From assembly GCF_001677475.2 (NCBI RefSeq), contig NZ_CP015229.1: a stretch of 64,000 nucleotides of DNA; one strand, given 5' to 3'. The position numbers and the translations under genes were made by a program. Shown here piece after piece: positions 1,334 through 52,745 of the stretch; position 1 is the stretch's first letter, and each line of letters begins with the position of its first letter. Under the pieces are notes generated by a model. It did no database searches, had not been told where the DNA came from, and saw nothing but the letters and a program-made list of their open reading frames with translations. Source of the DNA: Escherichia coli. Its GTDB lineage: Bacteria > Pseudomonadota > Gammaproteobacteria > Enterobacterales > Enterobacteriaceae.

Positions 1334-1343
1334 ACGTTCTCCT

Positions 1344-3841: not shown

Positions 3842-3902
3842 TTTTTCCTCATAAATTTGATGCCAGGTGAGGCTGTGTTTGTTTTGTTCGTTGCCGCTTT
3901 TT

Positions 3903-4089
3903 GCCTGATGCGACGCTGGCGCGTCTTATCAGGCCTACAAGACCCGAGCACAGAACCGTAGGCCGGATAAGGCGTTCACGCCGCATCCGGCATTCAGTGC
4001 CTGATGCGACGCTGACGCGTCTTATCAGGCCTACAGGTCCCGAGCACAGAACCGTAGGACGGATAAGGCGTTTTACGCCGCATCCGGCA
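3903..4089. repeat. REP/BIME cluster (two inverted REP units)
   Basis: Two copies of gcctgatgcgacgctg.cgcgtcttatcaggcctaca ... ccgtaggncggataaggcgtt.acgccgcatccggca between wcaK and wzxC. Confidence 0.8.
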
Positions 4090-4116
4090 ACCATTGCCGG
4101 AACCGAAAACAACAAC

Positions 4117-5595
4117 TCACCCCGCCCGTAAAAACATTTTCATTTTTTCGCTGCGACAAAACTGACGCTTCACTTCCACCACCAGCGGATGGCGCGACAG
4201 CACAATCATCACCACAAACGCCAGCACGCCCGCGGCTATTTGCACCGCCAGCAGCATCCCCAGCGCCAGTTGCCCTTTCAGTACAATGCCCAGTGCATAA
4301 CTGACCACCAGCGTCGGCAGCGAGAGATAAAACGGTAGCCACAAACTCAGGATGTACTGGCGATAACTGGAACCGAGCACCGGTTTAATCATCACGAAAT
4401 AGCTCAGAATGGTGTTGATAATCTGCACCAGCAGGAAACCGAGCGTGACGCCGATTGCGCCCGCCATCTGCCCACCAATGATGATTGCCGGAATAAACAG
4501 AAATGTTTTGAATACGTTGAATTTAAAGCTGATATCCACCCGCGCTTTCGCCATCAGCAGCGAACCAATCGGGTTACCCACTGAGCGCAGTAGCCCCACC
4601 ACACACAGCAATTGCAGCACCGGAATAATGCTGTTCCACTTTTCGCCAAATACCAGCGGTACAAAGTTATTCGACACCACCATTAGCCCCAGCAGCGCCG
4701 GAAAGTTGATAATCCCCACTACCGACAGCAGCTTGTAGAAGTTGACGCGCAGCTTTTCGGTGTCGTCCTGAATTTTGGCAAATGCCGGAAACAACACGCG
4801 GGTGATGATTGGGTTCAGCTTCATCGGCGGCACAACTGCCACGTTGTACGCCAGGTTGTATCCCCCTGCCACGCCCGCGCCGAGAATACGCGCCAGCACC
4901 AGCGTTGAAAGGTTGGTGTTGAGATAGTTGATGATGCTGTCCGCCGTCAGCCAGGCACCAAAGCGTAAGTTCGGTGCCACCGACGCCAGCGAGAAATGCA
5001 GACCGGGGCGATAAATTTTGCGGCCAAAGTAGCCAAACAGCAGCGTTCTTACCGCACTATTGACCAGATAACCGAGGATCGCGGTCATCGCCAGCGGCCA
5101 GAAATGGGCGCTAACCACCGTAAAAGTAAAGCCCGCCAGCACCGCGCTGGTTTCGATCATGCCGATTTTGTTGAACTCCAGCTCTTTTTGCATCAACGCG
5201 CGGAACTGCTGCCCGTGGGGGATCACCACAAACGCCAGTGACAATGTTTTAATCAACGGTGCCAGGTCCGGGTTATTCAGCACGTCGCCGATGAGATCAC
5301 TCAACAAAAACACTGCCACGCACACTACAATCCCCAGCCCGACGTTCAGCCAGTACAGCGTGGTGAGTTCCAGGTGGCTGATTTCTTTTCGCTGAATAAT
5401 CGAGTTAGCGATACCGAAGTCAGAAAGCGTATCTGCCAGCGCGATGATCACCAGCGACACGGTAAGCAAACCGAACTGGTGGTTGTCAATAATCCGCGCC
5501 AGCACGGTCATCTGTACCAGCCCGAGGCCGATGATGATCACCGTAGCAATCGCCGACCACTTCGCGCCGCTGATGGTTTTTTCACGTAAGCTCAT
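4117..5595 (-). CDS. wzxC: Colanic acid repeat-unit flippase WzxC
   Basis: 492-aa polytopic membrane ORF MSLREKTISGAKWSAIATVIIIGLG...; Wzx/MOP-type flippase; synteny. Confidence 0.9.
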   Translation of the reverse strand: MSLREKTISGAKWSAIATVIIIGLGLVQMTVLARIIDNHQFGLLTVSLVIIALADTLSDFGIANSIIQRKEISHLELTTLYWLNVGLGIVVCVAVFLLSDLIGDVLNNPDLAPLIKTLSLAFVVIPHGQQFRALMQKELEFNKIGMIETSAVLAGFTFTVVSAHFWPLAMTAILGYLVNSAVRTLLFGYFGRKIYRPGLHFSLASVAPNLRFGAWLTADSIINYLNTNLSTLVLARILGAGVAGGYNLAYNVAVVPPMKLNPIITRVLFPAFAKIQDDTEKLRVNFYKLLSVVGIINFPALLGLMVVSNNFVPLVFGEKWNSIIPVLQLLCVVGLLRSVGNPIGSLLMAKARVDISFKFNVFKTFLFIPAIIIGGQMAGAIGVTLGFLLVQIINTILSYFVMIKPVLGSSYRQYILSLWLPFYLSLPTLVVSYALGIVLKGQLALGMLLAVQIAAGVLAFVVMIVLSRHPLVVEVKRQFCRSEKMKMFLRAG

Positions 5596-5596
5596 A

Positions 5597-6991
5597 TCAA
5601 TATGCCGCTTTGTTAACGAAACCTTTGAATACCGTCAGGAAAACGATTTTGATATCGAACCAGACGCTCCATTCGCGGATGTACTCAAGGTCGAACTCGA
5701 CGCGTTTTTCCATTTTCTCCAGCGTGTCGGTTTCGCCGCGCCAGCCGTTAATCTGCGCCCAGCCAGTAATGCCCGGTTTCACTTTATGGCGCAGCATGTA
5801 GCCTTCAATGAGCTGTCGATACTGTTCGTTATGCGCCACTGCGTGCGGACGTGGCCCGACAATCGACATCCCACCAGTCAGCACATTGATAAACTGCGGC
5901 AATTCGTCCAGCGAGGTGCGGCGCAGAAAGTTCCCCACTTTGGTAACGCGCGGATCGTTCTGCGTCGCCTGGGTCACCACTTTGTCGTTCTCCATCACTT
6001 TCATGGAACGGAACTTCCACACTTTGATCGGTTTGCCATCCATGCCATAGCGAGTCTGGCGGAAAATAACCGGCCCTGGTGAACTGAGTTTCACCGCCAG
6101 CGCAATACAGCACAGCACCGGGGAGATCAGCAGCAGAATAAGCGTCGCCAGCACAATGTCTTCCGCACGTTTGAGCAGGCGGTTTACCCCGGAAAGCGGC
6201 GTATCGTACAGCGGTACCACCGGTACGCCGTTCATCTCTTCGATACGGGAATGGAGAATGTTGAAGGTAAAGACATCGGGGATCAGCAGCACCGAACAGG
6301 TGGTGTCCGCCAGTTGATGGACCAGTTTTTTCACGCGCGCGCCGTCGCACATTTGCATCGCGATATAGACGTTATGAATCTTGCCCGCTTTCGCATCCTC
6401 GACCAGTTGTTGCAGATTACCCGCCCAGTCGTTAGAAACGCCGCCCGGTTTTGGGTCGTGGTATACGCCCACCACTTCAAACCCTAACCACGGCTGATTA
6501 CGGAAGCTCTCCATCAGCATTTGTCCGGCGGCTAAATCCCCCGCTACGGCGACCATACGCTTGTTATAGCCATGATTACGCAGCCAGCCCGCCCCAATGC
6601 GAATACATGAACGGCAAACCACCAGTCCGATGCTGGTCAGCCCATACCACGCCAGCCAGATTTTCAGTTGCGTGTCGAAATCATTGTTGAACGCCACCAG
6701 ACCGGCGCTGAAAATCACGCTTAAGGTCCAGTTTTGTAGCAACAGGGCAAATTCTGTCGCTGCCCGAACACCGCGCCATGAGCGATAAAAATCGGTGATG
6801 CCGCCCAGCATCTGGAACACCACCAGCGTAATCAGCGCCACCAACAGGTGCATGTAGAGGAATGACAGTCCGCTCACTTCGCAAACCAGCCATAACCCGG
6901 CAAACATGATGGTGATATCTGAAAAGCGTTGCACCATAGAGATTAACGATGCATTGGTTTTCGCTCGCTCGCGCTTTTTTAGATTTGTCAT
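5597..6991 (-). CDS. wcaJ: Undecaprenyl-phosphate glucose-1-phosphate transferase WcaJ (initiating sugar transferase)
   Basis: 464-aa ORF with N-terminal TM helices and C-terminal bacterial sugar transferase domain (...PGITGWAQINGWRGETDT...). Confidence 0.9.
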   Translation of the reverse strand: MTNLKKRERAKTNASLISMVQRFSDITIMFAGLWLVCEVSGLSFLYMHLLVALITLVVFQMLGGITDFYRSWRGVRAATEFALLLQNWTLSVIFSAGLVAFNNDFDTQLKIWLAWYGLTSIGLVVCRSCIRIGAGWLRNHGYNKRMVAVAGDLAAGQMLMESFRNQPWLGFEVVGVYHDPKPGGVSNDWAGNLQQLVEDAKAGKIHNVYIAMQMCDGARVKKLVHQLADTTCSVLLIPDVFTFNILHSRIEEMNGVPVVPLYDTPLSGVNRLLKRAEDIVLATLILLLISPVLCCIALAVKLSSPGPVIFRQTRYGMDGKPIKVWKFRSMKVMENDKVVTQATQNDPRVTKVGNFLRRTSLDELPQFINVLTGGMSIVGPRPHAVAHNEQYRQLIEGYMLRHKVKPGITGWAQINGWRGETDTLEKMEKRVEFDLEYIREWSVWFDIKIVFLTVFKGFVNKAAY

Positions 6992-7011
6992 CGTTGTTCC
7001 TGTTCTATTGT

Positions 7012-7118
7012 CGCCTCGCCCCTCACCCCGGCCCTCTCCCCAAAGGGGCGAGGGGGAGAAGAAAGTTCCGTGCTCACTTCTCTCCGCAGGCAGTAGAGCG
7101 TCAGGGTGAGGGGGAAAG
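7012..7118. repeat. BoxC-like GC-rich palindromic intergenic element
   Basis: cgcccctcaccccggccctctcccc...ggggcgagggggag ... gggtgaggggg; nested inverted repeats between wcaJ start and cpsG stop; resembles the E. coli BoxC repeat (reverse complement gggagagggccggggtgagggg) as I recall it. Confidence 0.45.
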
Positions 7119-7126
7119 TAATGACA

Positions 7127-8497
7127 TTACTCGTTCAGCAACGTCAGCAGAGTTCGCGTTCGCGCTTCCATCAGCGGCACATCACCGCGCGATTCCACAT
7201 TCAGGCGCACCACCGGTTCGGTGTTGGAGGAGCGCAGGTTAAAGCGCCAGTCGGCAAAGGTCATGCTGATGCCATCGGTGCGATCCACCGCCAGCGCCTC
7301 ACGGCTAAAATGCTGTTCCACGCGGTTAATCGCCTCAACGGGATGCGCCAGTTTGCTGTTGATCTCACCGCTTGCCGGAAACGCCGCCATCCGGTCGCGT
7401 ACCAGTTCGCCCAGCGTTTTCTCTTTCAGGCACACCAGTTCGGCGACCAGCAGCCACGGGATCATGCCGCTGTCGCAGTAAGCGAAATCACGGAAGTAAT
7501 GGTGGGCGCTCATTTCGCCACCGTAGATGGCGTCTTCCTTGCGCATCCGTTCTTTAATAAAGGCGTGTCCGGTTTTCGACATCACCGGAGTGCCGCCCGC
7601 GGCAGTCACCACATCAACGGTGTTCCAGGAGAGACGTGGATCGTGGATGATCTTCGCGCCGGGATTTTTTTCGAGGAACGCTTCTGCCAGTAGGCCGACA
7701 ATGTAGTAGCCCTCAATAAACTGCCCTTTTTCGTCAAACAGGAAACAGCGGTCAAAATCGCCATCAAAGGCAATGCCCATATCCGCGCCGTGTTTGATGA
7801 CCGCATTGCGGGTGTCATCGCGGCATTCCGGCAGCAGCGGGTTAGGAATACCGTTGGGGAAATTGCCGTCCGGCGTGTTGTGCACTTTGATCAATTCCAC
7901 CGGTGCGCCGAGGGCGTTAAAGCGGGCTTCGATAGCGTCCACCACCGGCCCCGCTGCGCCGTTCCCGGAGTTGATTACCAGCTTGAGCGGCGTGAGGTTT
8001 TTGACGTTGATATAACCGAACAGGTGATCAACGTAAGCGTCACGCAGATTGATTTGCTGATAGCGACCGCGTTTTGTTTCATCAACGGGAGGAAAGTCGT
8101 TGGCTTCTGCCAGACGCTGGACGTCGCGCAGTCCGGTATCACCGCTGATCGGGCGGGCCCCTTCGCGCACCAGCTTCATGCCGTTGTAATCCATCGGGTT
8201 ATGGCTGGCGGTAACTTCGATGCCGCCATCCACGCCGAGATGGAACGTGGCGAAATAGATCTCTTCGGTGCCGGACATGCCAATATCCAGCACATCGACG
8301 CCCGCATCCTGTAAACCTTTCGCCAGCGCCAGTTTTAAGGTTTCGCTGGTGAGGCGGACATCACCGCCTAACACAATGGTTTTCGGTTTGAGAAATTCGC
8401 CATAGGCACGCCCAATACGCCAGGCAATATCTTCATTCAGTTCTTCGCCTAATTTCCCGCGAATATCGTAGGCTTTAAAGCAGGTTAATTTTTTCAT
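7127..8497 (-). CDS. cpsG: Phosphomannomutase CpsG (ManB)
   Basis: ORF 7127..8545; start trimmed to [19 protein letters not shown]... (456 aa); phosphohexomutase active-site motif TASHNP present. Confidence 0.9.
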
Positions 8498-8587
8498 GTC
8501 GTTACCCTTTTTCAGGCAATAGTTGGCCCTGACCGAAGCGGCCAATTTTGTTTTTGTCGTTATTTACATCGCGGTTCGGCATTCATT

Positions 8588-8689
<102 letters not shown>

Positions 8690-8699
<10 letters not shown>

Positions 8700-10126
8700 C
8701 CGTAGCGATCCGCGAAGCGCACCACATCATCCTCTTCGAGATAAGAGCCGGAGCGCACTTCAATTAAATCGAGCGGAATTTTCCCCGGGTTTTCCAGGCA
8801 GTGCTTCGCCCCCAGCGGAATATAAATGGACTCGTTTTCACCAAGCAGTTTGATATCACCGTCAATAGTGACTTTTGCCGTTCCCGCGACAACCACCCAG
8901 TGTTCCGCCCGGTGATGGTGCATCTGTACCGACAAGCCTTCGCCCGGTTTCACGGTGATGCGTTTCACCTGGTAGCGGTCGCCCGCGTCGATAGAGTCAT
9001 ATTTGCCCCACGGGCGATAGACTTCGCGATGTACCCGATGCTCATGGCGACCATCGGCTTTGATCTGCTCGACCACTTTTTTCACATCCTGCACCGCATT
9101 GCGGTCGGCAATCAGCACCGCATCTTTGGTCTGCACTACCACCAAATCTTTCACCCCGACGGTGGTGACCAGGCCAGATTCGGCATACACATAGCTGTTT
9201 TCAGTTTTGTGATTAATCACATCGCCATGGCAAACGTTGCCCTCGGCGGTGTGGGCGCTGATCTCCCATAAAGAGGACCAGGAGCCGACATCGCTCCAGC
9301 CCGCATCCATCGGCACCACAACAGCATCTGCCGTGCGTTCCATAACTGCGTAATCCACCGACTCTTCCGGGCAGGCCAGAAACGCTTCTTCATCCACACG
9401 AATAAAATCGAGATCCGGATCGACGGCGCTCATCGCTTTTTCACAGGCGTTGAGGATGTCCGGGCGATATTTTTTCAGTTCTTCGAGATAGCGTCCGGCG
9501 CGGAACAGGAACATGCCGCTGTTCCAGTAATATTCGCCGCTTGCCACATAGGCCTGGGCGGTTTCCAGATTCGGTTTTTCGACAAACTGCGCCACTTCAA
9601 AGGCCACCGTATCCTGCTCACCCGCCGACACTTCACCGCGACGAATATAGCCATAACCGGTTTCTGGTAGATCCGGCACAATGCCGAAGGTCACCAGCTT
9701 ACCTGCTTCGGCATATGGCATGGCATTACGCACGGCGGCACGGAACGCGTCTTCATCGGCAATCACATGATCCGCCGCCAATACCAGCATTAACGGGTCG
9801 CTCTCCGGGCTATGACGTTTTGCCGCCAGCGCCGCCAGTGCAATGGCAGGTGCAGTGTTACGCCCTGCCGGTTCGAGAATAATGTTCTCGGTGAGTTTGT
9901 TCAGTTGACGCAGCTGTTCCGCGACAATAAAGCGGTGCTGCTCATTACAAATCACCACCGGGCTTTCGCACTCCACGCCGTTCAGGCGACAGATGGTGGT
10001 TTGCAGCATGGTGAGATCGCCTTTCAGGCATAAAAACTGCTTGGGGTAAAGTACGCGGGAAAGCGGCCATAAGCGGCTCCCGGAGCCACCTGCCATCACA
10101 ACTGGATAGAGTTTCGACTGCGCCAT
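8690..10126 (-). CDS. cpsB: Mannose-1-phosphate guanylyltransferase CpsB (ManC)
   Basis: 478-aa [27 protein letters not shown]... with C-terminal cupin/mannose-6-P isomerase-like domain. Confidence 0.9.
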
Positions 10127-10128
10127 AA

Positions 10129-11352
10129 TTATCCCCGAATATCATTTATAAATTGACGTAACACGTTCTCTTTATCGAGCGTGCGTTCGGCATATTCACG
10201 TGCCACCGTGTTGTGTTTGGGCAGCAGGAGCGCCTGACGGATCCCCGCCACCAGTGCCTCGACCGATTCCGGTTCTACGCAAACCGCAATGCCCGGAAAG
10301 GTTTCGCAAAGCTGCCCCAGTTCGGTGTGGGCTTCTGCGGTAATCACCGCGTTACCACCTACCGCCAGAATATTGGTCAGTTTCGACGGCAATACGGCAT
10401 CTGCCGCGCCGCGTTTTTGCACTACCAGATGGCAATCGCCCATCTTCAGCAGTGCGGGTAAAGCGTCATACGATTGCAGTGGAAAAAATTGCATGTTGCG
10501 CAGTCCACGCTGCTGCGCCATTTTTTCCAGCCGCGCTTTGCCGCCGCCCTGCCCGACAATGGCAAAAATCAGCGGTTCATCGCGCAGGCGATCGGCAGCT
10601 TCAATAACGTTTTCCAGCCCTTGCTTTTCACCAATATTGCCGGAGTAAAGAATGATTTTTTTGTTATCCGGCAGGCCAAGCTGGTTACGAAGGGCATCAA
10701 CATCGGCGTCTGCAACATATTGAAAACGGGCGATTTCCGACCAATTGGGGAAGAAGATGACGTTTTCCGCCGCCACGCCTTTTTCGATGGCTTTATTCAT
10801 CATCGAACGCGAAATCGTGGAGACGTTATCGACGTTATGCAGTCCGCTACGTTCGAACGCCGTCGCCAGCTGTGCCACTTTGCCGCCTTTGCCTTTTCCG
10901 GCAAGGCCCAGCCCCAGCATGGCGTCCACTTCGTAATCCTGAATATGCAGCACCGTGCGCGCACCAGAAAGTTTCGCCAGCAGGCGCATTCCCGGCGTGC
11001 AAAACAGCGTTGGCACTACGCCAATAATGCGCTCCGGCTTCCAGCGACGTTGCGCCATCAGCGGGAAAAAACTGCTGACGGCAAAACTGCCGAGATGCAA
11101 CAGGCGTTTCAGGGTGCTCGGCTGTTTTGGCACATACAGCGGGCAGCGCCACACCGTGGCGGCCCCCTCTTCCCGTTTGTACCGCCAGGCGGAATAGTTC
11201 TCACCCACCTGCCACTGCGGGTAGTAAGGCGGTGCGGTAATGACCCGCACCTCATGACCTTGTGCCGCAAGCCATTCCACCATCTCTCCGGTGTATTTGC
11301 CGATGCCGGTTAACTCCGGCGAGTAGTTAATGCCGTAGACCAGTATTTTCAT
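10129..11352 (-). CDS. wcaI: Colanic acid biosynthesis glycosyltransferase WcaI
   Basis: 407-aa [27 protein letters not shown]...; GT4 family; synteny. Confidence 0.9.
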
Positions 11353-11828
11353 AATCCGGGTACTCCGGCACGCTTCTCAGCGAGAAAATAGGCGCGGCTG
11401 TTAGCGTGAACATTGTCACTGGCGAGCAGCGCGTCCGGCGTCAGCCAGCGGTAATCGTCATGCTGCTCATCCGGCAGTAACAGCTCTTCTTCCACTACTC
11501 TGAAGCGAAAACCGAGCACCACATAGTGAGTGGAGAAATCCGTGCCGGAGAAGTTATCGTCATAAAAGTGCTGCCAGACACCGTAAAACTGGCCTGCTGT
11601 TATCGGCAGACGCAGCCCCAGTTCCGCCATCGTCAGCCGCTCAAATGCGGCTTCCAGCGTTTCGTCTTTCTGCACGCGCCCTCCCGGCACAAACCAGTAA
11701 CCCTGCGCCGGGCGGTTGGTTCTTTTGCCAAGCAGAAACTCGCCGCGACTGTTCTCGACAATAAAGTCGAGAGAGACAAGCGGGGTGGAGCGCACTACCG
11801 TGGCAAAGTCTTCCTGACGTAAAAACAT
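11349..11828 (-). CDS. gmm: GDP-mannose mannosyl hydrolase (Nudix) Gmm/WcaH
   Basis: [26 protein letters not shown]...; Nudix fold; start taken at second Met (159 aa); overlaps wcaI by 4 bp. Confidence 0.85.
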
Positions 11829-11830
11829 CA

Positions 11831-12796
11831 TTACCCCCGAAAGCGGTCTTGATTCTCAAGGAACCACTGGTAAGTGCTGGCAAGCCCCGCTTCCAGTGAG
11901 ATTTCGTGATACCAGCCAAGCTGATGCAGGCGCGTCACATCCAGCAGTTTGCGCGGCGTACCATCCGGTTTACTGGCATCAAAAACCACCCGACCTTTGT
12001 AACCCACCACTTTGGCGATGGTTTGCGCCAGCTCGCGGATAGTGCAGTCAACGCCCGTGCCGACGTTAATGTGTGACAGCATCGGCTGGGTGTTTTCCAG
12101 CCAGACTTCGTGCGCCAGCTCCATCACATGAATGCTCGCCGCTGCCATATCATCGACGTGCAGAAATTCACGCATCGGTGTACCGCTGCCCCATACCACC
12201 ACGTCCGGTGCATTCTGTGCCGTCGTCTCGTGGAAGCGACGCAGCAATGCAGGTATCACATGCGAATTACTCGGATGGAAGTTGTCGTGTGGCCCGTACA
12301 GGTTGGTCGGCATGACCGAGCGGTAATCGCGTCCATACTGGCGGTTGTAAGATTCGCACAGTTTGATCCCGGCGATTTTGGCAATGGCGTAAGGCTCGTT
12401 GGTCGGCTCCAGCGTACCCTGCAATAACTCGCTTTCGGCCATCGGCTGTTTTGCCAGTTTCGGGTAGATGCAGGACGATCCGAGAAACAGCAGTTTGTTC
12501 ACGTCGTTCTGATGCGCAGCGTGAATGATGTTGCTCTCAATCATCATGTTCTGGTAGATGAAATCCGCCGGATAGGTGTTATTGGCAACAATGCCGCCCA
12601 CTTTCGCTGCCGCCAGATAAACCTGGTCAATGCGCTCGCTGGCAAAGAAATCATGCACCGCACGGCTATCCAGAAGGCTCAGCTCGTCGCGGGTGCGTAA
12701 TACCAGTTCCACATCACCGCGCTGTTCGAGCTGCCGCCTGATGGCGGAACCGACCATCCCGCGATGGCCAGCGATAAAAATGCGTTGTTTACTCAT
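11831..12796 (-). CDS. fcl: GDP-L-fucose synthase Fcl
   Basis: 321-aa [26 protein letters not shown]...; NAD(P)-binding GxxGxxG motif; synteny with gmd. Confidence 0.9.
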
Positions 12797-12798
12797 GC

Positions 12799-13920
12799 TT
12801 ATGACTCCAGCGCGATCGCCACGTCGTAGCCGTGAGATTTCAGCAGAGAGTGTTTTTTCGCCGCTTCGAGGTCATTAGCCACCATTTCAGACACCATCTC
12901 TCTGAGGGTGATTTCCGGTTTCCAGCCCAGTTTTTCGTGCGCTTTGGTCGGGTCGCCAAGCAGCGTTTCAACTTCAGCCGGACGGAAGTAACGCGGGTCA
13001 ACGGCGATAATCACATCACCCGGTTTAACGCCCGGCGCGTCATGCCCGGTGACGGAAACCACAATGCCCTTCTCTTCAACACCCGTGCCTTCAAAGCGCA
13101 GTTTGATGCCCAACTGTGCTGCCGCCATTTCCACGAACTGACGTACGGAGTACTGAACGCCGGTCGCGATAACGAAATCTTCTGGCTGTTCCTGTTGCAG
13201 CATCATCCACTGCATTTTTACGTAGTCTTTGGCATGGCCCCAGTCACGCAGGGAATCCATATTGCCGAGGTACAGGCACGACTCCAGCCCCTGGGCGATG
13301 TTGGCGATTGCGCGGGTAATTTTGCGGGTAACGAAGGTTTCGCCGCGGCGCGGGGATTCATGGTTGAAGAGAATACCGTTACAGGCGTACATGCCGTAGG
13401 ATTCGCGGTAGTTAACGGTGATCCAGTAGGCGTACAGTTTGGCGACCGCATACGGAGAGCGTGGGTAGAACGGCGTGGTTTCTTTCTGCGGAATTTCCTG
13501 CACCAGACCGTACAGTTCAGAAGTGGAAGCCTGATAGAAACGAGTTTTCTTTTCCAGACCGAGGAAGCGGATCGCCTCCAGCAGGCGCAGCGTACCCATC
13601 GCATCAACGTCTGCGGTATATTCCGGTGACTCAAAAGAGACCGCAACGTGGCTCATTGCGCCCAGGTTGTAAACTTCATCCGGCTGCACTTCACGCAAAA
13701 TGCGCGTCAGGTTGGAGGTATCACTCAGGTCGCCATAATGCAGATGGAATTTCGGGTTGCAGGTGTGCGGATCCTGATAAATGTGATCCACGCGCTCGGT
13801 GTTGAATGACGATGCACGACGCTTAATACCATGCACCTCATAACCTTTTTCCAGCAGAAACTCTGCCAGGTAAGAACCGTCTTGTCCGGTTACACCGGTG
13901 ATGAGAGCGACTTTTGACAT
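12799..13920 (-). CDS. gmd: GDP-mannose 4,6-dehydratase Gmd
   Basis: 373-aa [34 protein letters not shown]...; SDR-family dehydratase. Confidence 0.9.
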
Positions 13921-13946
13921 GTCTTATTCCTCTGTATTTTTTGAAT

Positions 13947-14495
13947 TTATTCAGTTTCAACGCGTTCGCGTATCACCACTGCGGGATTCCCCCGGCAAAC
14001 CACATTTGCCGGAAGCGATTTAAAAACACTGCTTCGCGCACCCACGACGGTGCCGTCGCCGATCGTTACGCCAGGGGCAACAAAGACATCGGTTGCCAGC
14101 CAGCATTTCTCGCCAATCACAATAGGTGTGGCGTTAATGGTGAAATGTTGACTTGCATGGTCGTGGCTACCGGTGCATAAATAACTTTTTTGCGATATCA
14201 CCGAATTTGCGCCAATGGTTATTTCACCGAGGGTATATAAATTGACCTCATCGCCGACCCACACGTAATCACCTAAGGTTAATTTCCACGGATAGGTAAT
14301 TTTTACTGACGGACGAATAACTACGTTTTTTCCTATTTTTGCGCCGAATAAACGTAATAAAAATTCCCGCCAGCGATACAATACTTGTGGCGACCAGGCA
14401 AATAATGTTGCCTGTACTGCCCACCACAATTGCACTTTAATAGCGTTGCCGCCCCGGAACCCTTTCGGCACCGAGAAACCACTTAAATCCTGCAT
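13947..14495 (-). CDS. wcaF: Colanic acid acetyltransferase WcaF (hexapeptide-repeat)
   Basis: 182-aa ORF with left-handed beta-helix hexapeptide repeats (...IGANSVISQKSYLCTGSHD...). Confidence 0.85.
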   Translation of the reverse strand: MQDLSGFSVPKGFRGGNAIKVQLWWAVQATLFAWSPQVLYRWREFLLRLFGAKIGKNVVIRPSVKITYPWKLTLGDYVWVGDEVNLYTLGEITIGANSVISQKSYLCTGSHDHASQHFTINATPIVIGEKCWLATDVFVAPGVTIGDGTVVGARSSVFKSLPANVVCRGNPAVVIRERVETE

Positions 14496-14510
14496 CGTTT
14501 TCCCTTATAT

Positions 14511-15257
14511 TCAGCTTTTGTTATATAAGGCTTTCGTCTTTGAGGTAGTACGTTGGCGTAAATGCCAGGATAATTCTGCCCAGAAGCCAGGCACATGTAA
14601 TATCTGCCGTTGGACTTTTTTGGCGTCAGCACACAATTCCATATTATTGGTGGTAGATACTCCACCCATAGAAAATTCAGACACCAGGCCATTGAGTTTT
14701 CTAAATGCATAACCAGCTTTATACATTTTGGCTGCCAGCGCGTAATCGGAAGAAACTTTATATTCCAGGTCATAACGCCATTTTTTCAAACCGGATACCG
14801 GGAAAAATATCGCCTGATGACTGGCGGGCAGGCTGTGATAAATATACCAGCCCGGTTTGGCGCTACGTTTAATTTTATGCCCGTCGCCAAAATCCAGCAG
14901 CGCATCGCCGGTGATCATCACGTTATCTTTTTGCATTTTTAACTTACGGACAAAAATTGCGGCATCCTGATGAAAAATATCGCCCGAGTTGAGAAACAAC
15001 GCGAACTTGCCTTGTGCCATCGCAATGCCCTTGTTCATGGCGTCGTAGATACCGTTATCTGGCTCGCTGACAAAGCGTAGGTTATAGATACCATTGAGGT
15101 TTTCCAGATACTCACGGGTGCCGTCGTTGGAACCGCCATCGACAACAATCCATTCGAAGCTGATATCGTCAGCCTGCGCCAGATGCGCCAGCGAGGCATG
15201 TGTTTTGACTATCCCTTCGAGGTTACGAAACGCGACAGTGATTATGCTAAGCAACAT
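14511..15257 (-). CDS. wcaE: Colanic acid glycosyltransferase WcaE (GT2 family)
   Basis: 248-aa [26 protein letters not shown]...; GT2 DxD-type fold; AT-richer than neighbours. Confidence 0.85.
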
Positions 15258-15267
15258 GTTCTTATTC

Positions 15268-16485
15268 TTACCTCGTAATATTTAACGCTTTTCGCAAAAT
15301 AAACGGACAGACGATTAAAAAAGCATATTCCGGGCTAAATATCGAACCGGTAAAAAACAGCGATACCGGAGTGAAAAGATATAATTGCACGCGAAAATTG
15401 CGATTATCACCAAAAGCGTTGATCATCATTTTTATCACTTTTCCCATGTACCACAGCGATAAAAACACTGCGAACCAGGAAAAATAAATAATCAGCAGAT
15501 ACAAACCATTGTCTATGGTTTTTCCGACATCCGCACCGTTAAATATTCCGAATGATGCGACATATTCATAAAGTGAGCCAAATCTGACTACACCGTCAAT
15601 ATGGGTCAAAGAATAACCGACCATCACCAGCGGACCGACAATACGATAATACGATGACGATCCTTCCGTACCTAAATCACCCAGACGGGTGGAAATATAA
15701 GGAAACGCGATTACCACACCAACCAGGAATACAGCCAGAGAAATCAATGCTAACGGTAACTTTTTCTTAATCGCCTCTTTATTCAGATATTGAAATACCC
15801 ACTCCAGCAAATAAAAAAGGATAAAGGTCATAACCCCTGAAAACGATCCGGATAATATTATCCCTGCGAGAATCATAGCATCTGTTTTAGGCGTTTTGAT
15901 ACCAAACTGTTTGATGCTGAGCCAAATTGAGATTAATGCCAGAGCGAAAAATGCCGGTTCGAAATAAAGTGCTGTCGTGCGCTTGCCACCGAATTTAATG
16001 AAATTCAGTACATAGCTGTTGCTGTAAATCAGATATTTCGAAATCGACTCCATAATACTGCTGCCGCCGGTGAGGATAATTTGCGCCATCTCCACCGCCG
16101 CCAGCGCCACCACCAACCCGACCACCAGATAAAAAAAGCGTAATATCTTGCGGTGGTTGTGGGGCGAAATCGTTTTAAAGCGAATACTCCACACCATGCC
16201 AATAATGATCACAATATAGACAAACAGCATGGTTGAAGTGACGTATTTACTGGCATCCAACGACTGACCAAACAGGTAGTTAAACGCCGTGAGTCCCGCA
16301 CCAATCCCTAAGGCAATCATCAATTTTTTAACGCTGATGCGCTCTAAAAACAGCAGTAACAAGACAGGTAAAAAAGTGACGATGGTGATGGGAAAACTTT
16401 CGCCAAGCTGGGCGATTTTGACGTTAACCAGCAGGTAGATCAGCGGCAGCAGCAGGTAGCTACAGATTCTGATAGAAGTTGACAT
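15268..16485 (-). CDS. wcaD: Colanic acid polymerase WcaD (Wzy-like)
   Basis: Polytopic membrane ORF; start trimmed to [21 protein letters not shown]... (405 aa); overlaps 3' end of wcaC by 26 bp; AT-rich. Confidence 0.8.
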
Positions 16486-17677
16486 ACTCCTCCAGCATCT
16501 GTTGTCCACTGTAGGCGGCACGGCTGCGTTGGCTGAACTCAGCCAGCGTGGTACCAAATACCGCCTGCGCGATTTCCGGTTTGCTTAACTGGACCAGTTG
16601 CAGCACCTCTTCTTCGCTGACGGTTTTACCGCCGGATTTTTGCAACACTTCACGCGCCGCGTCGCTATGGGTGGCAATCACCGGCACGCCAATTGATAAC
16701 GCCTCACACAAAATCAGTGGGTAGTTATCGACACGAGAACTGAACACCAGCGCATCCATCTGATTGAGCGCGCTCATCAGCTTACGTTTGTCGGTTTCAA
16801 AGCCGTGATTGACCACGTTGCCAGCGGTGAACGGCGAGAACTTACCAAAGGTATGCAGTTCGATTTTGTCGTCCAGCGCCATCATCTCGCGCACCAGTTG
16901 CTGGTTAGTTTTGCCGTCGTAACGCAGGTCATGCGCTACCACCGCGATTTTCGGCTTGCCCTGAGTTTCGCGCACCGGAGGCAGATCCGCCAGAATCGCT
17001 TCGGTTGCCATATCAATACCGTTATTGATAATCCGGCAACGCCCTGGGCCATACAGGCTATTGAAAGCGTCAGCCACATGCTGGCTGGGGGAAATAAACT
17101 GACAGCCCAGTGCCAGCATCTCACGGAATAACTGGCGTTTGCCCGCCACCAGCTGGCGCGCGCGATCAATCTTCACCGGCGGATAATTATTTAAGGTCGG
17201 GCATTTCTGGCAGCTCGTTTTCCAGCCTTCGCAACCGTCGGTAAAGGCGCAGCGTCCGGTAACGCTCCAGTGGTCGTGCAGCGTCCAGACCAGTGTGATA
17301 TCCGGTTTATGGTTTTTCACTTTTTCGCAAAAGCGCACCACGCTCTTAAGATTCAACCAATAGCTGTGCAGCACATGAAAATGCAGAACCAGCGGACCCG
17401 GTGTGCGAGTAATGGTGCGATATAACTCATTGAAATTACCGAACAGATCGCGATTAAACAGACGAAACAACGCAATGTTCGCCATCGCGGTCATCCGCGG
17501 CGTATGTTTGATGACCTGCGGGTAGTTCTGATGGCTGACGCTCTCTTTGCCGCCTTTGCCGTAGCCGTAGACAAAATGTGACGCCAGCCCCTGTTGCAGC
17601 GCGCGCTGGTGGAGATCTAACGCCACACCTGCCGCCCCGCCTTCCGCCAGTCGCACATTAAATTGCAGAATATTCAT
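16460..17677 (-). CDS. wcaC: Colanic acid glycosyltransferase WcaC (GT4 family)
   Basis: 405-aa ORF MNILQFNVRLAEGGAAGVALDLHQ... Confidence 0.9.
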   Translation of the reverse strand: MNILQFNVRLAEGGAAGVALDLHQRALQQGLASHFVYGYGKGGKESVSHQNYPQVIKHTPRMTAMANIALFRLFNRDLFGNFNELYRTITRTPGPLVLHFHVLHSYWLNLKSVVRFCEKVKNHKPDITLVWTLHDHWSVTGRCAFTDGCEGWKTSCQKCPTLNNYPPVKIDRARQLVAGKRQLFREMLALGCQFISPSQHVADAFNSLYGPGRCRIINNGIDMATEAILADLPPVRETQGKPKIAVVAHDLRYDGKTNQQLVREMMALDDKIELHTFGKFSPFTAGNVVNHGFETDKRKLMSALNQMDALVFSSRVDNYPLILCEALSIGVPVIATHSDAAREVLQKSGGKTVSEEEVLQLVQLSKPEIAQAVFGTTLAEFSQRSRAAYSGQQMLEEYVNFYQNL

Positions 17678-18162
17678 TTAATTACCTTCACTCGCGCTTT
17701 TTCTCCCACCACCAGCGCGTTGTCCGGGACAGAGTCGAGCACCACGCTGCCCGCGCCCACGGTGACGTTGTTACCAAGCGTGATATCACCAAGAATAATG
17801 ACGTTGGCACCGAGTTCGACACCGTTACCAATGTGTGGACATGCCATGTTATCGGCACCCCGATTGCCGATAGTGACGCCGTGGCGAATGGTGAAATCAT
17901 CCCCCGCGACCACGTTTTTATTGATCACTACGGCGTAACCGTGATGGATAGTAAAGCGTCGGCCAATGGTCGCGGCGGCCTGGATTTCATAACCGAAAAA
18001 GCATTCGGTGATAATGCGATACAGCACCAGCAGCGGGGCCGCCCACAGATTGTTGAGGACGTTCTTTTTGCGCCACACCGAACAAAAATGAGCAACGCGA
18101 TAGGCAAGAACCATGCAGCACGGGCGTAAACTCCAGCTGTTGGCGCGCAGATCTTCCAGCAT
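17674..18162 (-). CDS. wcaB: Colanic acid acetyltransferase WcaB (serine acetyltransferase-like)
   Basis: 162-aa ORF with hexapeptide repeats (...IGNRGADNMACPHIGNGVELGANVIILGDITLG...). Confidence 0.9.
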   Translation of the reverse strand: MLEDLRANSWSLRPCCMVLAYRVAHFCSVWRKKNVLNNLWAAPLLVLYRIITECFFGYEIQAAATIGRRFTIHHGYAVVINKNVVAGDDFTIRHGVTIGNRGADNMACPHIGNGVELGANVIILGDITLGNNVTVGAGSVVLDSVPDNALVVGEKARVKVIK

Positions 18163-18164
18163 CC

Positions 18165-19004
18165 TTAACGCCCCCGTATTCCATCAGCCAGACGTTTGCC
18201 GTTACGCACCGACAGTAGCGTCAACAAAGTCCGCCAGGTCATGCGTTTATTGCGGATCTGGTAGAGGGTAAACAATTGATATTTTTTGCTGGCGCGGTCA
18301 AATTTGTCTTTGTGCTTGCGGTAAAAGTGGAAGTATCCGGAGAATTTTTTCGGTGACGAGGTGATCTGCATTTCACCGTGATTGATATGCAGGATCTGCG
18401 TCGCTTCTTCCACTTTCCACGGTTCGCCATACTCCACCACCATCCGCAGGAAGATGTCGTAATCCTGTGCCGCTTTCAGTTCGGTATCGAACAAACACTC
18501 TTTGAAACGCCACGCCCAGGTAAAGACCTGATTGCCAATGATATTGCGTTTATAGAACAGGCGGCGTGAATAGGGTGATTTGGGATACAGCGGCAAACTT
18601 GCTGGTTGGGAATAGACTTCGCCCTGGCAAACGTAGTCGTTGGCGTACAAAAAGGCGTGAGTGACCAGTTGCTGCTTATGGGCGAGGAAGACGCTCAGGC
18701 GGTTGGGCGTCCATTCATCATCGTCATCGATCCCGGTGATGTATTCCCCTTGCGCCCGCATAATTGCCTGGTTACGTACCGCGCACGCTCCGCTGTTAAT
18801 ATCGTTGTGAATGTAAGTAATACGCGGATCGTTGAGGGCGGTGACGTACTGTTGCAGTTGTTCCCAGGAGGTGGAGCAATCATCCACGATGATCATCTCC
18901 CAGTTACTGTAGTCCTGGCGCAGGACCGATTTTATCGCCCGAATCGCCAGTTGTTGGCGGTTCCAGGTCGGCATATAGATTGAGATCAGCGGATTTTCTT
19001 TCAT
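18165..19004 (-). CDS. wcaA: Colanic acid glycosyltransferase WcaA (GT2 family)
   Basis: 279-aa ORF MKENPLISIYMPTWNRQQLAIRAIKSVLRQ... with DDD motif (GIDDDDEW). Confidence 0.9.
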   Translation of the reverse strand: MKENPLISIYMPTWNRQQLAIRAIKSVLRQDYSNWEMIIVDDCSTSWEQLQQYVTALNDPRITYIHNDINSGACAVRNQAIMRAQGEYITGIDDDDEWTPNRLSVFLAHKQQLVTHAFLYANDYVCQGEVYSQPASLPLYPKSPYSRRLFYKRNIIGNQVFTWAWRFKECLFDTELKAAQDYDIFLRMVVEYGEPWKVEEATQILHINHGEMQITSSPKKFSGYFHFYRKHKDKFDRASKKYQLFTLYQIRNKRMTWRTLLTLLSVRNGKRLADGIRGR

Positions 19005-19035
19005 AGGTTGTTCTCCCGACTTATGAGCTGGTTTG

Positions 19036-19078
19036 CTTGCCGGATGCGGCGTGAACGCCTTATCCGGCCTACGGGGCG
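19036..19078. repeat. REP element
   Basis: gcttgccggatgcggcgtgaacgccttatccggcctacgggg between wzc stop and wcaA start. Confidence 0.75.
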
Positions 19079-19096
19079 GTGCGAATGCAGGTGTCG

Positions 19097-21259
19097 TTAT
19101 TTCGCGTCCGACTTATATTCGTATTCGTAATAGCCATAATCCTGATACGCGCTGGCGCGGCGGAAGATGGAGTTCAGAATCACCCCTTTCACCGGAATAC
19201 CGTTTTGCTCAAAGCGGCTCAGACTGGTTTCCACTTCTTTCAATGTGTTGACCGCATAACGCGCCACCATTAACGTGGTTCCAACATGACGACCAACAAT
19301 TGCCGCATCGGTCACTGCCAGAATCGGCGGCGTATCAATCAACACCAGGTCGTAGTTTTTACTCGCCCAGTTCACCAGTTCGGCAAAGCGTTCGCTCATC
19401 AACAGTTCAGAAGGATTTGGCGGTACCTGACCGCGCGGGATCAGGTCAAATTTGGCAATAGAGGTCGGTTTAGCAGCGGTAGTAATATCGCCCTGACCAA
19501 TCAGAATTTCCGACAGGCCATTGACGTTATTGGTGCCCAACAGCTCGTGGGTGTAGCCTTTGCGCATATCGCAGTCGATCAACAACACCCGTTTATTGGT
19601 CTGACTGATCACCGCCGCCAGGTTAGCGCAGACAAAGGTTTTACCGATTGACGGGCTAACCCCGGTCATCATCAACACATTGTTCTGCGCCTGCATCATC
19701 GCGAAGTGCAGACTGGTACGCAGACTGCGGATGGCTTCAATCGCCAGATCGGTTGGATTCCCCACCGCCAGTAGCTGGCTCTGTTTATAGCGTTTAATCC
19801 CTTTGATGGTTTTGACGCTATCGCGCGCTTTCTGCCATTCCGACAGCGGGATGCTGGCATAGACGCTGATACCGTGTTCTTCCAGCACCTGCGGGCTTTC
19901 GATGCCACGATTAAACAACGAGCGCAGCAGTACACCCACGATAGAGAGCATCAGGCCGAGGATAATCGCCCCGAGGATAATCAGCCCTTTCTTCGGTTTC
20001 AGCACACCAGGCTGGGTGATTGCCGGGTCAACAATGCGCACATCGCCGACGGTGCTGGCTTCGGTGATTTTCAGCTCCTGTTCTTTATTCAGCAGTTGCA
20101 TATAGACCTGCTGACCAGACTCGACATCGCGGGTCAGACGGACAATTTCCTGCTGGGTTTTCGGCATCGCCGTTACGCGCCCGTTAAGTTTGGCTTTTTC
20201 GTCTTCCAGCGCCTGCCGTTTCTCCAGCAGCGTGCGGTACGCCGGATGAACTTTGGTGAACAGCTTGGAGATTTCCGCCTCTTTAAAGGTCAGTTCGTTC
20301 AGCTGCGCGTCGATGTTCACCATCGAATCGAGCACCGCTTTCGCTTCCAGCGGCAGATCAACAGAATCTTTATCCTGACGGAAGGCATTCAGTTTGTTTT
20401 CGGCAACATCGAGGCGGCTACGTACTTCCGGTAACTGTTGCGCGAGGAAAGCGAGGCTTTTCGACGCTTCCGCCGATTTGCGCTCAATATTTTGTTCCTG
20501 ATAGTTACGGGCGATGCTGTTAAGAATGTCGCGGATCTGTTCGCGATCTTCACCGGTATAAGTCAGGCTCAGTACGCCTGCGTCTTTGCCGTTCTCCGTT
20601 ACCGTCAGGCTGTTTTGCAGTTGGTTGATCATCCCCAGCGTGGAGTATTTGGTGATGGTAAACTCACTGCCCGGGCTAGCGTGAATAGCTTCAACCATCA
20701 GCGTGACGCCTTCTTTTGTCAGCATCTGGCCCGCTTGCCCACGGGCGCTAAAGCCGCCATCGCTGCTCAGAGTGTAGTTTTTATCGTCCAGCACATTAAG
20801 CGTAAACACCTGATCCGCCATCTCTTTCGGACGGTTAAAGGTGGTCACTTTCACCGTTTCGTTCTGACTTCCCATCAGGCGATCCCAGCCCGCACCGAAA
20901 ATCGGGAACGTGTTTTTGCTCACCGCAATATCGAGGTCGAGATCGTCCACCGTTTTACCAAGCACCAGGCGCGAACGAATCAACTGGATCTCGGCGTCCG
21001 ATGCAGGCGGTTTGTTGGCTAACGCCGATCCGATATCCTGCACTAACGAATTGCCGCTGCTTTGCTCGATTTGTACCAGTGCGTCGGCACTATAAATCGG
21101 CGTGGCGAAGAAGGTGTAAACCACGGCACAGAGGGCGAATACGGTGGTGATGCCAATCACCCACCAGCGCGCTTCAATGACGGTGCCGACCAGGCGACCA
21201 ATATCGATTTCATCACTGCCCGTTACCGGAGCGGCATGTTGTTTTACTTTTTCTGTCAT
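19097..21259 (-). CDS. wzc: Tyrosine autokinase Wzc (polysaccharide co-polymerase)
   Basis: ORF 19097..21295 trimmed to MTEKVKQHAAPVTGSDEIDIG... (720 aa); Walker A (GVSPSIGKT) and C-terminal Tyr-rich tail YGYYEYEYKSDAK. Confidence 0.9.
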   Translation of the reverse strand: MTEKVKQHAAPVTGSDEIDIGRLVGTVIEARWWVIGITTVFALCAVVYTFFATPIYSADALVQIEQSSGNSLVQDIGSALANKPPASDAEIQLIRSRLVLGKTVDDLDLDIAVSKNTFPIFGAGWDRLMGSQNETVKVTTFNRPKEMADQVFTLNVLDDKNYTLSSDGGFSARGQAGQMLTKEGVTLMVEAIHASPGSEFTITKYSTLGMINQLQNSLTVTENGKDAGVLSLTYTGEDREQIRDILNSIARNYQEQNIERKSAEASKSLAFLAQQLPEVRSRLDVAENKLNAFRQDKDSVDLPLEAKAVLDSMVNIDAQLNELTFKEAEISKLFTKVHPAYRTLLEKRQALEDEKAKLNGRVTAMPKTQQEIVRLTRDVESGQQVYMQLLNKEQELKITEASTVGDVRIVDPAITQPGVLKPKKGLIILGAIILGLMLSIVGVLLRSLFNRGIESPQVLEEHGISVYASIPLSEWQKARDSVKTIKGIKRYKQSQLLAVGNPTDLAIEAIRSLRTSLHFAMMQAQNNVLMMTGVSPSIGKTFVCANLAAVISQTNKRVLLIDCDMRKGYTHELLGTNNVNGLSEILIGQGDITTAAKPTSIAKFDLIPRGQVPPNPSELLMSERFAELVNWASKNYDLVLIDTPPILAVTDAAIVGRHVGTTLMVARYAVNTLKEVETSLSRFEQNGIPVKGVILNSIFRRASAYQDYGYYEYEYKSDAK

Positions 21260-21261
21260 TC

Positions 21262-21705
21262 TTATACCTGCTCTGCGTTCAATGCCTGCGCCCACTGGCG
21301 GGCAGACCGTTCAAGTAATGTGTACACCGCTGCAAACGTTTCCCGGCTTTTGCGATACGGATCGGGGATTTCACATTCGTTATCCCAGTGACCAAACAGC
21401 ATCACTTTGCCGCGCATCTCAGGTGCCATCTCGCATAAGCGTTCGATATGGCGCTTTTCCATGGTCAAAATCAGGTCATAGTTGCGACACAGACGGCGGC
21501 TGATTTGCCGTGCACAGTGACCTTCCAGAGACAGTTGATGTTCTGCGGCGACGCTGATAGCGGTAGGATCAGCGCCCTTACCGACCAGCGCGCCGAGTCC
21601 AGCGGACTCCACTTTCAGCTCCGGGTGATAACGTTGCAGTAAGCGTTCCGCCGTCGGGGAACGGCAAATATTGCCGACACAGACAACTAAGATGTTGTTA
21701 AACAT
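21262..21705 (-). CDS. wzb: Low-molecular-weight protein-tyrosine phosphatase Wzb
   Basis: 147-aa ORF MFNNILVVCVGNICRSPTAERLL... with CX5R P-loop. Confidence 0.9.
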   Translation of the reverse strand: MFNNILVVCVGNICRSPTAERLLQRYHPELKVESAGLGALVGKGADPTAISVAAEHQLSLEGHCARQISRRLCRNYDLILTMEKRHIERLCEMAPEMRGKVMLFGHWDNECEIPDPYRKSRETFAAVYTLLERSARQWAQALNAEQV

Positions 21706-21710
21706 GACGA

Positions 21711-22850
21711 TTACCAGTTATGAATGTCGCTGGCTGTATCCGTCATGTAACGGACACCGCTAATAGTTGGCAGCAACTGATTGATCAGACGGTTCCAGCG
21801 GGAAACCGGGGCGGTGGTGACATACACCACGTCATAAGGTTGCAGGCGGAATTCTGTCGCCATCACCAGCGACGTCGCATCGGACATATCCAGCTGGTAG
21901 ATATTGGCAATCTTGCCGTTACGCCCGCCCTCGCCTTTCAGCGGACGAATGACAAAGATGCCGCTGGCGTTGGAGGTGGTCATGTCGATACCTTCGGCAT
22001 TGCCCAGAGCTTCAGTCAGGGTCATGCCGCTAAAGTCCATTTTCAGGGTGCTCTGTTTCTTCACTTCACCCATCACAAATACTTTCAGATCATCATTACG
22101 CGGCACGTAGAGAATATCGCCGGGATAAAGCAGTCGGTTCTGATTGAGGTCGCCGTTTTGCATCAGCGCCTGCAAAGAAATGCGTTCTTCACGACCATTG
22201 TGTGTTAGCACCACGTTGCGCCAGTCAGCGGTGTCGGTCAGGCCACCTGCGGCGTTGATGGCATCGAGAATGGTCAGTGGCACGTTGGTGATCGCCTGTT
22301 GACCGGATTTATTCACCTGACCGGAGATATAGGCCTTTTGCGAGCGGAAGGCGGCGATATTAACGTCCACCTGCGGGTCAGCGATGTACGTCGCTAAGCG
22401 CCCGGTAATATCACTGCGGATTTCAGCGAGCGTTTTCCCCACGACGTGAACCTTGCCGATATACGGGTAGAACATAGTGCCGTCAGGCTGTACCCAGTTG
22501 CCGGTGTCGCTGGAGCTGCGGTACTGACCGGCTGGCGTGGTGAGTTCCGGGTGATCCCAGACGGTGACATTAAGAACGTCCCCCGGCCCGACGCGATACT
22601 GGTAATTCGCGATCTCACTTTCCAGCGTCATATTGGGGCGCGCTACATTCGGGCGTGGGCGTAATTGGTCAATCAGGCGCGGGGTCAGCGGATAAACATT
22701 CACCATTTTGTCGAGATCGAAATCAGCGTCCTGCTGTTTGATGACGTCTTTCCCCATCGTCGACATATTGCTGCCCGGAAGTACTGTGCAACCGCTTATC
22801 AAGGTTACTGACACCAATAATGGCATCAATTTCATTTTGGATTTCATCAT
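21711..22850 (-). CDS. wza: Outer-membrane polysaccharide export lipoprotein Wza
   Basis: 379-aa ORF with lipoprotein signal (...[10 protein letters not shown]...); first gene of the cps operon. Confidence 0.9.
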
Positions 22851-23028
22851 TGTTTATTTATCACTTTGGCAGAGTAATTATCCTGTGCACTATTAATAGC
22901 AATGTCGCCATGCACATTTACCTTGCAGTTAATTGAATAAAAATTTAACTGGCATCAGTCCTAAAAAAATTGATTTCATCCGCAGGCTATTGACAGAATA
23001 ATTCAGACTGGTCTTTCAGGCATCCAGA

Positions 23029-23040
23029 CACGCTACCGCC
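23029..23040 (-). promoter_or_regulatory. ops element (GGCGGTAGCGTG) inside the JUMPstart of the cps leader; RfaH recruitment site
   Basis: Plus strand reads cacgctaccgcc, so the minus (cps-sense) strand reads ggcggtagcgtg, about 180 nt upstream of the wza ATG in the untranslated leader. Confidence 0.7.
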
Positions 23041-23252
23041 CCTGGCTTTTAGCTACCAATACACTGATTTAGCTTAATTTTTAAAACCCTCTCAACATAC
23101 AGTCGTTGATGAGAAAGGGTTATTGCGGAAATTAACTTCCGAATATAAGGTGACATTATGGTAATTGAATATTGGCTCTCCAATAATGCAGGAGGAAGTG
23201 TTACAGCTAACGGAATAGCAGGCAAGGTAACAATTCGGCAATTGGCTATTTT

Positions 23253-23266
23253 TAAGAATTATATTA
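23253..23266. promoter_or_regulatory. Candidate RcsAB box upstream of the cps promoter
   Basis: taagaattatatta resembles RcsAB consensus TaAGaatatTCctA (partial match); AT-rich region upstream of the ops-containing leader. Confidence 0.3.
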
Positions 23267-38432: not shown

Positions 38433-38613
38433 AAGAAATCCTTTCTTAGAGAATTATTGAGGTCCGGTATCATACCGATTGCAATAATGAAATAAGAGCA
38501 AACGAAGAAACTTTCAGAATTAGTCCCGGCGGCGCAGAAAATTTTGCTATTCGCCTCGCAAGAACGGAGAGCCGTCGATTGACACTAAGGGCGGAGTGAC
38601 ATAATTTCAGGAG

Positions 38614-52713: not shown

Positions 52714-52745
52714 CAGCTGCATTTATTAAGGTTATCATCCGTTTC

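Follow-up and report, generated by a model that had tools for sequence, protein, structure and literature searches.

RfaH lowers transcriptional pausing, Rho-dependent termination and some intrinsic termination (PMC2871177), and ribosome recruitment and the counter-silencing of H-NS/StpA are among its other documented effects. The colanic acid (cps/wca) operon of Escherichia coli has been connected with this factor before. A 'JUMPStart-RfaH antitermination mechanism' of the wca operon is attributed in the literature to Stout (1996) and to Hobbs and Reeves (1994), and an effect of RfaH on colanic acid synthesis to Navasa et al. (2014).

The same locus appears in RfaH ChIP-seq data from E. coli CFT073 (Hustmyer et al. 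2022, PMC9765446), in a dataset row that gives wza, the sequence GGCGGTAGCGTG and the position -190. In that study the wza ops was flagged as a UTR site on the non-template strand, where RfaH signal appeared in delta-hns delta-stpA cells, and wza-wcaM was described as a cryptic RfaH-regulated locus whose promoter is silenced by H-NS/StpA in rich medium. The wza region was bound by H-NS in CFT073, a sigma-70 peak lay upstream of wza in cells lacking both hns and stpA, and the RfaH signal was gone in delta-rfaH cells. RfaH bound leader ops sites only, not intragenic ops-like ones. The published RfaH signal at wza is limited to the delta-hns delta-stpA background and to strain CFT073, which is not the strain studied here.

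The contribution of single ops bases has been described as well (Zuber et al. 2018, PMC5995543). RfaH recruitment is lost when G4, G5, A7 or G8 is substituted and drops approximately threefold when C3 or T6 is. Bases 3-8 are unneeded for pausing, and T11-G12 causes the pause at U11.

Here we analyzed the ops element upstream of wza in a 64-kb stretch of E. coli DNA, referred to below as the window. The wza JUMPstart/ops element and its function are already published for this locus. Our analysis adds modest points: how widely and how precisely the element is conserved (75 of 79 leaders from 18 named genera), that one clade has naturally lost JUMPstart, and a set of conserved leader blocks that are unexplained.

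Results

An intact ops element at the end of a full-length JUMPstart

A preliminary description of the window had reported an ops/JUMPstart element on the minus strand, about 180 nt upstream of the wza ATG. Read directly, the minus strand from 23040 to 23029 is GGCGGTAGCGTG. The wza ATG is at 22850, so that the first base of ops falls at -190 and 178 nt separate the end of ops from the ATG; the earlier reading of ops was correct in its coordinates, strand, sequence and approximate distance. The element sits in the 5' leader, outside coding sequence, within the 657-bp yegH-wza intergenic region, and the divergent gene yegH starts at 23508 on the plus strand (RefSeq E. coli annotation).

The wza ops matches the 12-nt consensus GGCGGTAGnnTG on the non-template, wza-sense strand. 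All of the RfaH-contact and hairpin bases (C3, G4, G5, T6, A7 and G8) are intact, and the T11-G12 pause dinucleotide is present, with T at 23030 and G at 23029. The pause is predicted at U11, the first of these two positions, with G12 following it.

We compared the window with the Rfam JUMPstart model, RF01707. The match covered model positions 1-38 of 38 and scored 57.9 bits (gathering score 35), with an E value of 1.1e-10 for the whole window. The span first proposed for the element, 23029-23067, agreed with the known JUMPstart, since its 39 bp equal the JUMPstart length and RF01707 matched over its full length. The ops element occupies model positions 27-38, which is the 3' end of JUMPstart, and a second copy of GGTAGC is found in the JUMPstart 5' half, at 23057-23052. 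The JUMPstart is placed upstream of the polysaccharide cluster wza-wzb-wzc-wca. Coordinates of the features discussed below are collected in Table 1.

Table 1. Features of the wza leader, the colanic acid operon and ops-like sequences, in window coordinates
Feature	Position	Strand	Basis or remark
JUMPstart, 39 bp	23029..23067	-	Rfam 38-nt model aligns to 23066..23029
ops element GGCGGTAGCGTG	23029..23040	-	Non-template strand for wza transcription; unique in window
Seven other copies of GGCGGTAG	10359, 23619, 34931, 42322, 52424, 56054, 58313		None with T11-G12
yegH-wza divergent intergenic region, 657 bp (cps promoter and leader)	22851..23507		ORFs, RefSeq annotation
Conserved block TAAGAAATATCGCA	23333..23346	-	Conservation 0.6-0.9 per base vs 0.1-0.3 in flanks, 80 leaders
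Candidate core-promoter block, starts TTGTCA	23310-23285	-	Conservation profile; kept in L039
Candidate core-promoter block, TATAAT at 23263-23258	23268-23249	-	Conservation profile; kept in L039
Conserved block TTACCTTGCCTGCTATTCCGTTAGCTGTAACACTTCC, upstream of JUMPstart	23194..23232	-	Conservation profile; kept in L039
Conserved leader block ATTATTCTGTCAATAG	23003-22988	-	Alignment of 38 leaders
Conserved leader block TTTTTAGGACTGATGCCAGTTA	22966-22945	-	Alignment of 38 leaders
Conserved leader block GCACAGGATAATTACTCTGCCAAAGTGATAAATAA	22889-22853	-	Alignment of 38 leaders
wza, first gene of colanic acid operon	21711..22850	-	379-aa ORF, RefSeq annotation
Rest of operon	1..21705	-	Minus-strand ORF chain; order and lengths match colanic acid cluster
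REP-type hairpin GCCGGAUAAGGCGUUCACGCCGCAUCCGGC in 92-nt wzc-wcaA gap	19039..19068	-	Sequence; no U-tract after
REP-type repeat cluster (BIME-like) in 275-nt wzxC-wcaK gap	3895..4110		Sequence; naRNA4 match

The sequence GGCGGTAGCGTG was the sole exact copy of the 12-mer, and the sole complete ops site, in the 64-kb window. Exact and one-mismatch matches to the 12-mer together numbered 2, against 0.36 expected. We rejected the one-mismatch site, GGCGTTAGCGTG at 45465..45454, because it carries G5T, a change at a contact base whose substitution abolishes RfaH recruitment. The core 8-mer GGCGGTAG occurred 8 times in the window, against 1.46 copies expected from shuffles, and the copy in the wza leader alone combined T11-G12 with a non-coding leader position. 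A second ops within the operon, GGCGGTAGGTGG at 10366-10355 in the ORF assigned wcaI, was rejected on the grounds that it lacks T11 and G12 and is intragenic. The excess of GGCGGTAG may stem from codon or dipeptide usage, Gly-Gly-Ser being one example. Since the other seven copies are without T11-G12 and intragenic ops-like sites do not bind RfaH, we concluded that the window holds one functional ops site. The seven other 8-mers are not to be annotated as ops.

Other RNA families were also matched in the window. A mir-320 match in the leader (18.7 bits; gathering score 55.5) was dismissed as noise. Three tandem SIB RNA genes (RF00113; 149.5, 137.8 and 139.3 bits) were found at 38579-39384 on the plus strand; SIB RNAs act as the antitoxins in Sib/Ibs type I toxin-antitoxin loci. 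A CyaR/RyeE small RNA gene (RF00112, 100.7 bits) was found at 52744-52829, also on the plus strand.

Conservation of ops across wza leaders

We examined 80 loci encoding Wza proteins of 87-100% identity, taken from one-genome-per-species contigs in 18 named genera of Enterobacteriaceae; 79 of these had upstream DNA. The core GGCGGTAG was present in the leader of 75 of the 79 loci. It was located 186-199 nt from the wza ATG in 74 loci, and at 308 nt in Citrobacter amalonaticus S646 (L045). In the latter, an insertion of ~118 bp (3785-3905 of that locus) between conserved wza leader blocks moved ops from ~190 to 308 nt; it could be a small repeat or a mobile element. One other leader (L005) had a single substitution in the core, GACGGTAGCGTG.

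The alignment of 77 leaders showed no variation at ops positions 1, 3-9 and 11, and position 12 was G in 74. Position 10 varied freely (G in 66, A in 8, C in 3), and corresponds to the 'n' of the published consensus. Leader alignments showed JUMPstart as a conserved island with divergent flanks on either side. Upstream of it, leaders were 10-40% identical to the window sequence over 23190-23080, and identity was likewise just 10-40% in the leader 20-150 nt upstream of JUMPstart. The 1-kb leader region was present in 4,839 of 5,426 complete E. coli genomes, with 99.8% identity to ATCC 11775 and 98.6% to K-12.

The bases required for RfaH recruitment in the substitution experiments (PMC5995543) were exactly those that were invariant in the leader alignment, and all were present at wza. 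Because the invariant central bases of ops are unneeded for pausing (Zuber et al. 2018), the invariance of the RfaH-contact bases across the aligned sequences argues for purifying selection on RfaH binding, beyond pausing alone.

These comparisons leave a negligible probability that the motif is a functionless chance match. The 8-mers of GGCGGTAG were indeed over-represented, and short matches arise in coding sequence, but the full 12-mer was unique in the window and the 38-nt JUMPstart had an E value of 1e-10. The wza ops is far above chance, and its position is shared by 75 of 79 leaders; this conservation, together with the positive RfaH ChIP result, refutes a chance origin. The identity assigned in the preliminary description, ops within JUMPstart, was upheld by the full-length Rfam match, the presence of the RfaH and pause bases, the footprint in 18 named genera and the published ChIP-seq data.

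The JUMPstart/ops element was absent from three loci, L035, L036 and L039 (Pseudescherichia vulneris, Escherichia sp. ESNIH1 and MAG UBA7338). All three kept yegH-wza synteny, the RcsAB-box-like block and the rest of the conserved blocks in promoter and leader; the L039 example spans 3540-3975 of that locus. This distribution suggests that the Pseudescherichia vulneris group lost JUMPstart naturally. Because JUMPstart is missing where synteny and promoter blocks are kept, the element is dispensable in some backgrounds.

Read-out of the element as DNA or as RNA

In Rfam, JUMPstart belongs to the cis-regulatory RNAs and is modelled with a stem of 5 bp. We considered whether JUMPstart is mainly an RNA element, in which a leader hairpin or long-range pairing controls stability, processing or translation without RfaH. 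The Rfam stem was formable in 98.9% of cells across 38 aligned leaders. RNAalifold proposed an alternative helix between AUUGGUA (23060-23054) and a conserved UGCCAGU located ~75 nt downstream of ops, which was formable in 94% of cells. It also fits this idea that the JUMPstart 5' half is conserved though RfaH contacts ops alone.

Against it, the Rfam stem and the long-range helix showed zero two-sided (compensatory) changes, and their covariation was no better than that of column shuffles. The RNAalifold covariation term for the 38 leaders was -0.24, and the minimum-energy structure of the 38-nt JUMPstart RNA differed from the Rfam hairpin. Experiments have established that ops is read as non-template DNA (PMC5995543). 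With a folding z of 0.08 relative to shuffled sequence, no compensatory pairs, and pair counts at the level of shuffles, we rejected RNA structure as the main JUMPstart mechanism and consider it very unlikely. Some RNA role, above all for the conserved 5' half of JUMPstart, may still exist, though these data lent it no support. Most likely, RfaH reads the wza element as non-template-strand DNA on a polymerase paused at U11.

Promoter region and conserved leader blocks

The GC content was 34.5% in the 600 bp from 22801 to 23400, compared with ~54% in the operon, and such an AT-rich leader region fits H-NS binding. All conserved promoter-like blocks were located upstream of ops, with the promoter-like and RcsAB-box-like blocks lying 190-310 nt upstream (Table 1). 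The block TAAGAAATATCGCA resembles the published RcsAB-box consensus, TaAGaatatTCctA, and is a putative RcsAB box. A sigma-70 consensus scan of the yegH-wza intergenic region returned a single weak site (23182-23155), fewer than shuffles would give, and was uninformative. RfaH can load only while polymerase transcribes ops, so the published ChIP occupancy in CFT073 indirectly indicates that ops is transcribed and speaks against a transcription start downstream of it. The upstream position of the promoter-like blocks and the published sigma-70 peak lend this indirect support too.

A 49-aa 'hypothetical protein' (WP_162829205.1) is annotated at ~23158-23307 on the plus strand in many RefSeq E. 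coli genomes, though not in K-12, and runs opposite to the promoter and leader of wza. Since part of its stretch is poorly conserved between genera, this ORF is probably spurious.

Downstream of ops, three non-coding blocks (22853-23003) nearly matched ops in conservation across the 18 named genera. Inspection of the sequence before the wza ATG, which is preceded by ...GCCAAAGTGATAAATAAACAATG, revealed no obvious Shine-Dalgarno sequence. Because the ops-ATG distance is held, the downstream blocks are conserved and an obvious Shine-Dalgarno is lacking, the wza leader could be a composite device, made up of ops, the conserved downstream blocks and maybe a helix joining UGCCAGU to the 5' half of JUMPstart. 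We regard this as rather unlikely. If true, the composite leader would be an undescribed element that aids RfaH-mediated ribosome loading or gives a second regulatory input.

Genes, repeats and terminators in the downstream operon

By order and length, the ORFs that follow wza were assigned as wzb, wzc, wcaA-F, gmd, fcl, gmm, wcaI, cpsB, cpsG, wcaJ, wzxC, wcaK and wcaL, with names taken from the known E. coli cps order, and wcaM would extend past the left end of the window. Names were checked against annotation for wza, wzb and wzc only. A match to the Rfam algC RNA motif (RF02929) was found at 8502-8551 on the minus strand, with 77.3 bits against a gathering score of 33.8, in the ~190-nt gap between the ORFs assigned cpsB (manC) and cpsG (manB).

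Repeats of the REP type occurred in two of the gaps between genes (Table 1). The wzc-wcaA gap, folded as 96 nt, gave -29.5 kcal/mol (z = -2.1), and from its sequence the REP hairpin in this gap is a possible attenuator. Rfam matches to naRNA4 (REP-derived, CssrE) were located at 3961-4031 on the plus strand, in the wzxC-wcaK REP cluster, and at 61341-61411 on the minus strand. Terminator-like sites showed no enrichment in the operon, with 25 sites against 23.6 in shuffled sequence, and these numbers gave no evidence for canonical intrinsic terminators as the barrier that RfaH overcomes. On the present analysis, it is plausible that RfaH would be needed specifically for passing the internal REP and hairpin repeats. 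A region of low GC content (43-47%, against ~54% elsewhere in the operon) was observed at 13800-16200, over the ORFs assigned wcaD, wcaE and wcaF, which makes this stretch a candidate for binding by H-NS or for action by Rho within the operon.

The composition of the operon bears on a further reading, in which the wza ops is a strong pause able to bind RfaH, yet RfaH adds little; RcsAB and H-NS would control the operon essentially at initiation, and JUMPstart would be a largely vestigial legacy of an ancestral polysaccharide cluster. The colanic acid operon is silent unless initiation is activated, and it stays silent in the wild type on rich medium (PMC9765446). Most of the operon has a native-like GC content, its terminator-like sites are not enriched, and three lineages without JUMPstart retain the cluster and its promoter blocks. 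However, the RfaH-contact bases are conserved near-perfectly across the 18 named genera, though they are unneeded for pausing. The RfaH ChIP occupancy (PMC9765446) and the published effect of RfaH on colanic acid, as cited from Navasa (2014), also oppose a vestigial role, and we consider it extremely unlikely.

Discussion

With high confidence, we identify the element upstream of wza as the colanic acid (cps/wca) operon's JUMPstart/ops site, where RfaH is loaded. Its sequence, strand, position, significance and conservation come from the present analysis, and RfaH occupancy and mechanism are taken from the literature.

With the element acting as an RfaH loading site, transcription would initiate at an RcsA/RcsB-activated, H-NS-silenced promoter in the yegH-wza intergenic region, and RNA polymerase would enter the leader and pause at ops U11 (window 23030). 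The exposed non-template GGCGGTAGCGTG would fold into a small hairpin in which C3 pairs with G8 and T6 is flipped out, and the RfaH N-terminal domain would read this hairpin. RfaH would be freed from autoinhibition and would ride the polymerase over the remaining operon, excluding NusG. It would cut pausing, Rho-dependent termination and some intrinsic termination, and would aid elongation across H-NS/StpA-bound DNA. The refolded RfaH C-terminal domain would recruit a ribosome, which may matter as wza is without an obvious Shine-Dalgarno sequence. The expected outcome would be expression of the distal genes of the ~22-kb operon.

Which barriers inside the colanic acid operon RfaH overcomes is something we infer. 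The size of the RfaH requirement in this operon is uncertain, because most of the operon is ~54% GC and not typically 'foreign'. Loading of RfaH at wza explains how a 22-kb, 20-gene exopolysaccharide operon can be expressed from a single Rcs-activated promoter, and it places colanic acid in the RfaH regulon beside the LPS core, O-antigen, capsule and hemolysin operons.

Comparison with known systems

The E. coli colanic acid JUMPstart/ops described previously (Stout 1996; Hustmyer et al. 2022) is the same locus, with the same 12-mer, the same position at -190 and the same neighbors, yegH and wza. It was described in another strain, and there is no difference of substance between the published cps JUMPstart and that of the window.

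The ops elements of waaQ (rfaQ) and of the O-antigen operon (rfb/wzx) in CFT073 carry a 12-mer, GGCGGTAGCGTG, that is identical to the one at wza (PMC9765446). All three are found in the non-template 5' leader of a long surface-polysaccharide operon. The O-antigen ops is at -71 from the first gene in CFT073, compared with -190 at wza. The waaQ and O-antigen operons are constitutive, whereas wza must be activated by Rcs or freed from H-NS.

The group 1 capsule of E. coli K30 and Klebsiella is encoded by a cluster of the wza-wzb-wzc type, with a JUMPstart in the leader and dependence on RfaH. A stem-loop after wzc reportedly divides the K30 cluster into two gene blocks, a parallel to the REP hairpin found here in the wzc-wcaA gap. 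Group 1 clusters carry JUMPstart between galF and wzi, whereas in the window it lies in the wza leader. Group 1 capsule expression is described as constitutive, and not as dependent on an RcsAB box.

Lastly, the hlyCABD and kps ops elements follow the same recruitment logic as wza, in operons that are bound by H-NS. The hly ops, GGCGGTAGCATG, differs from that of wza at position 10 and stands at -634 in a much longer leader (PMC9765446).
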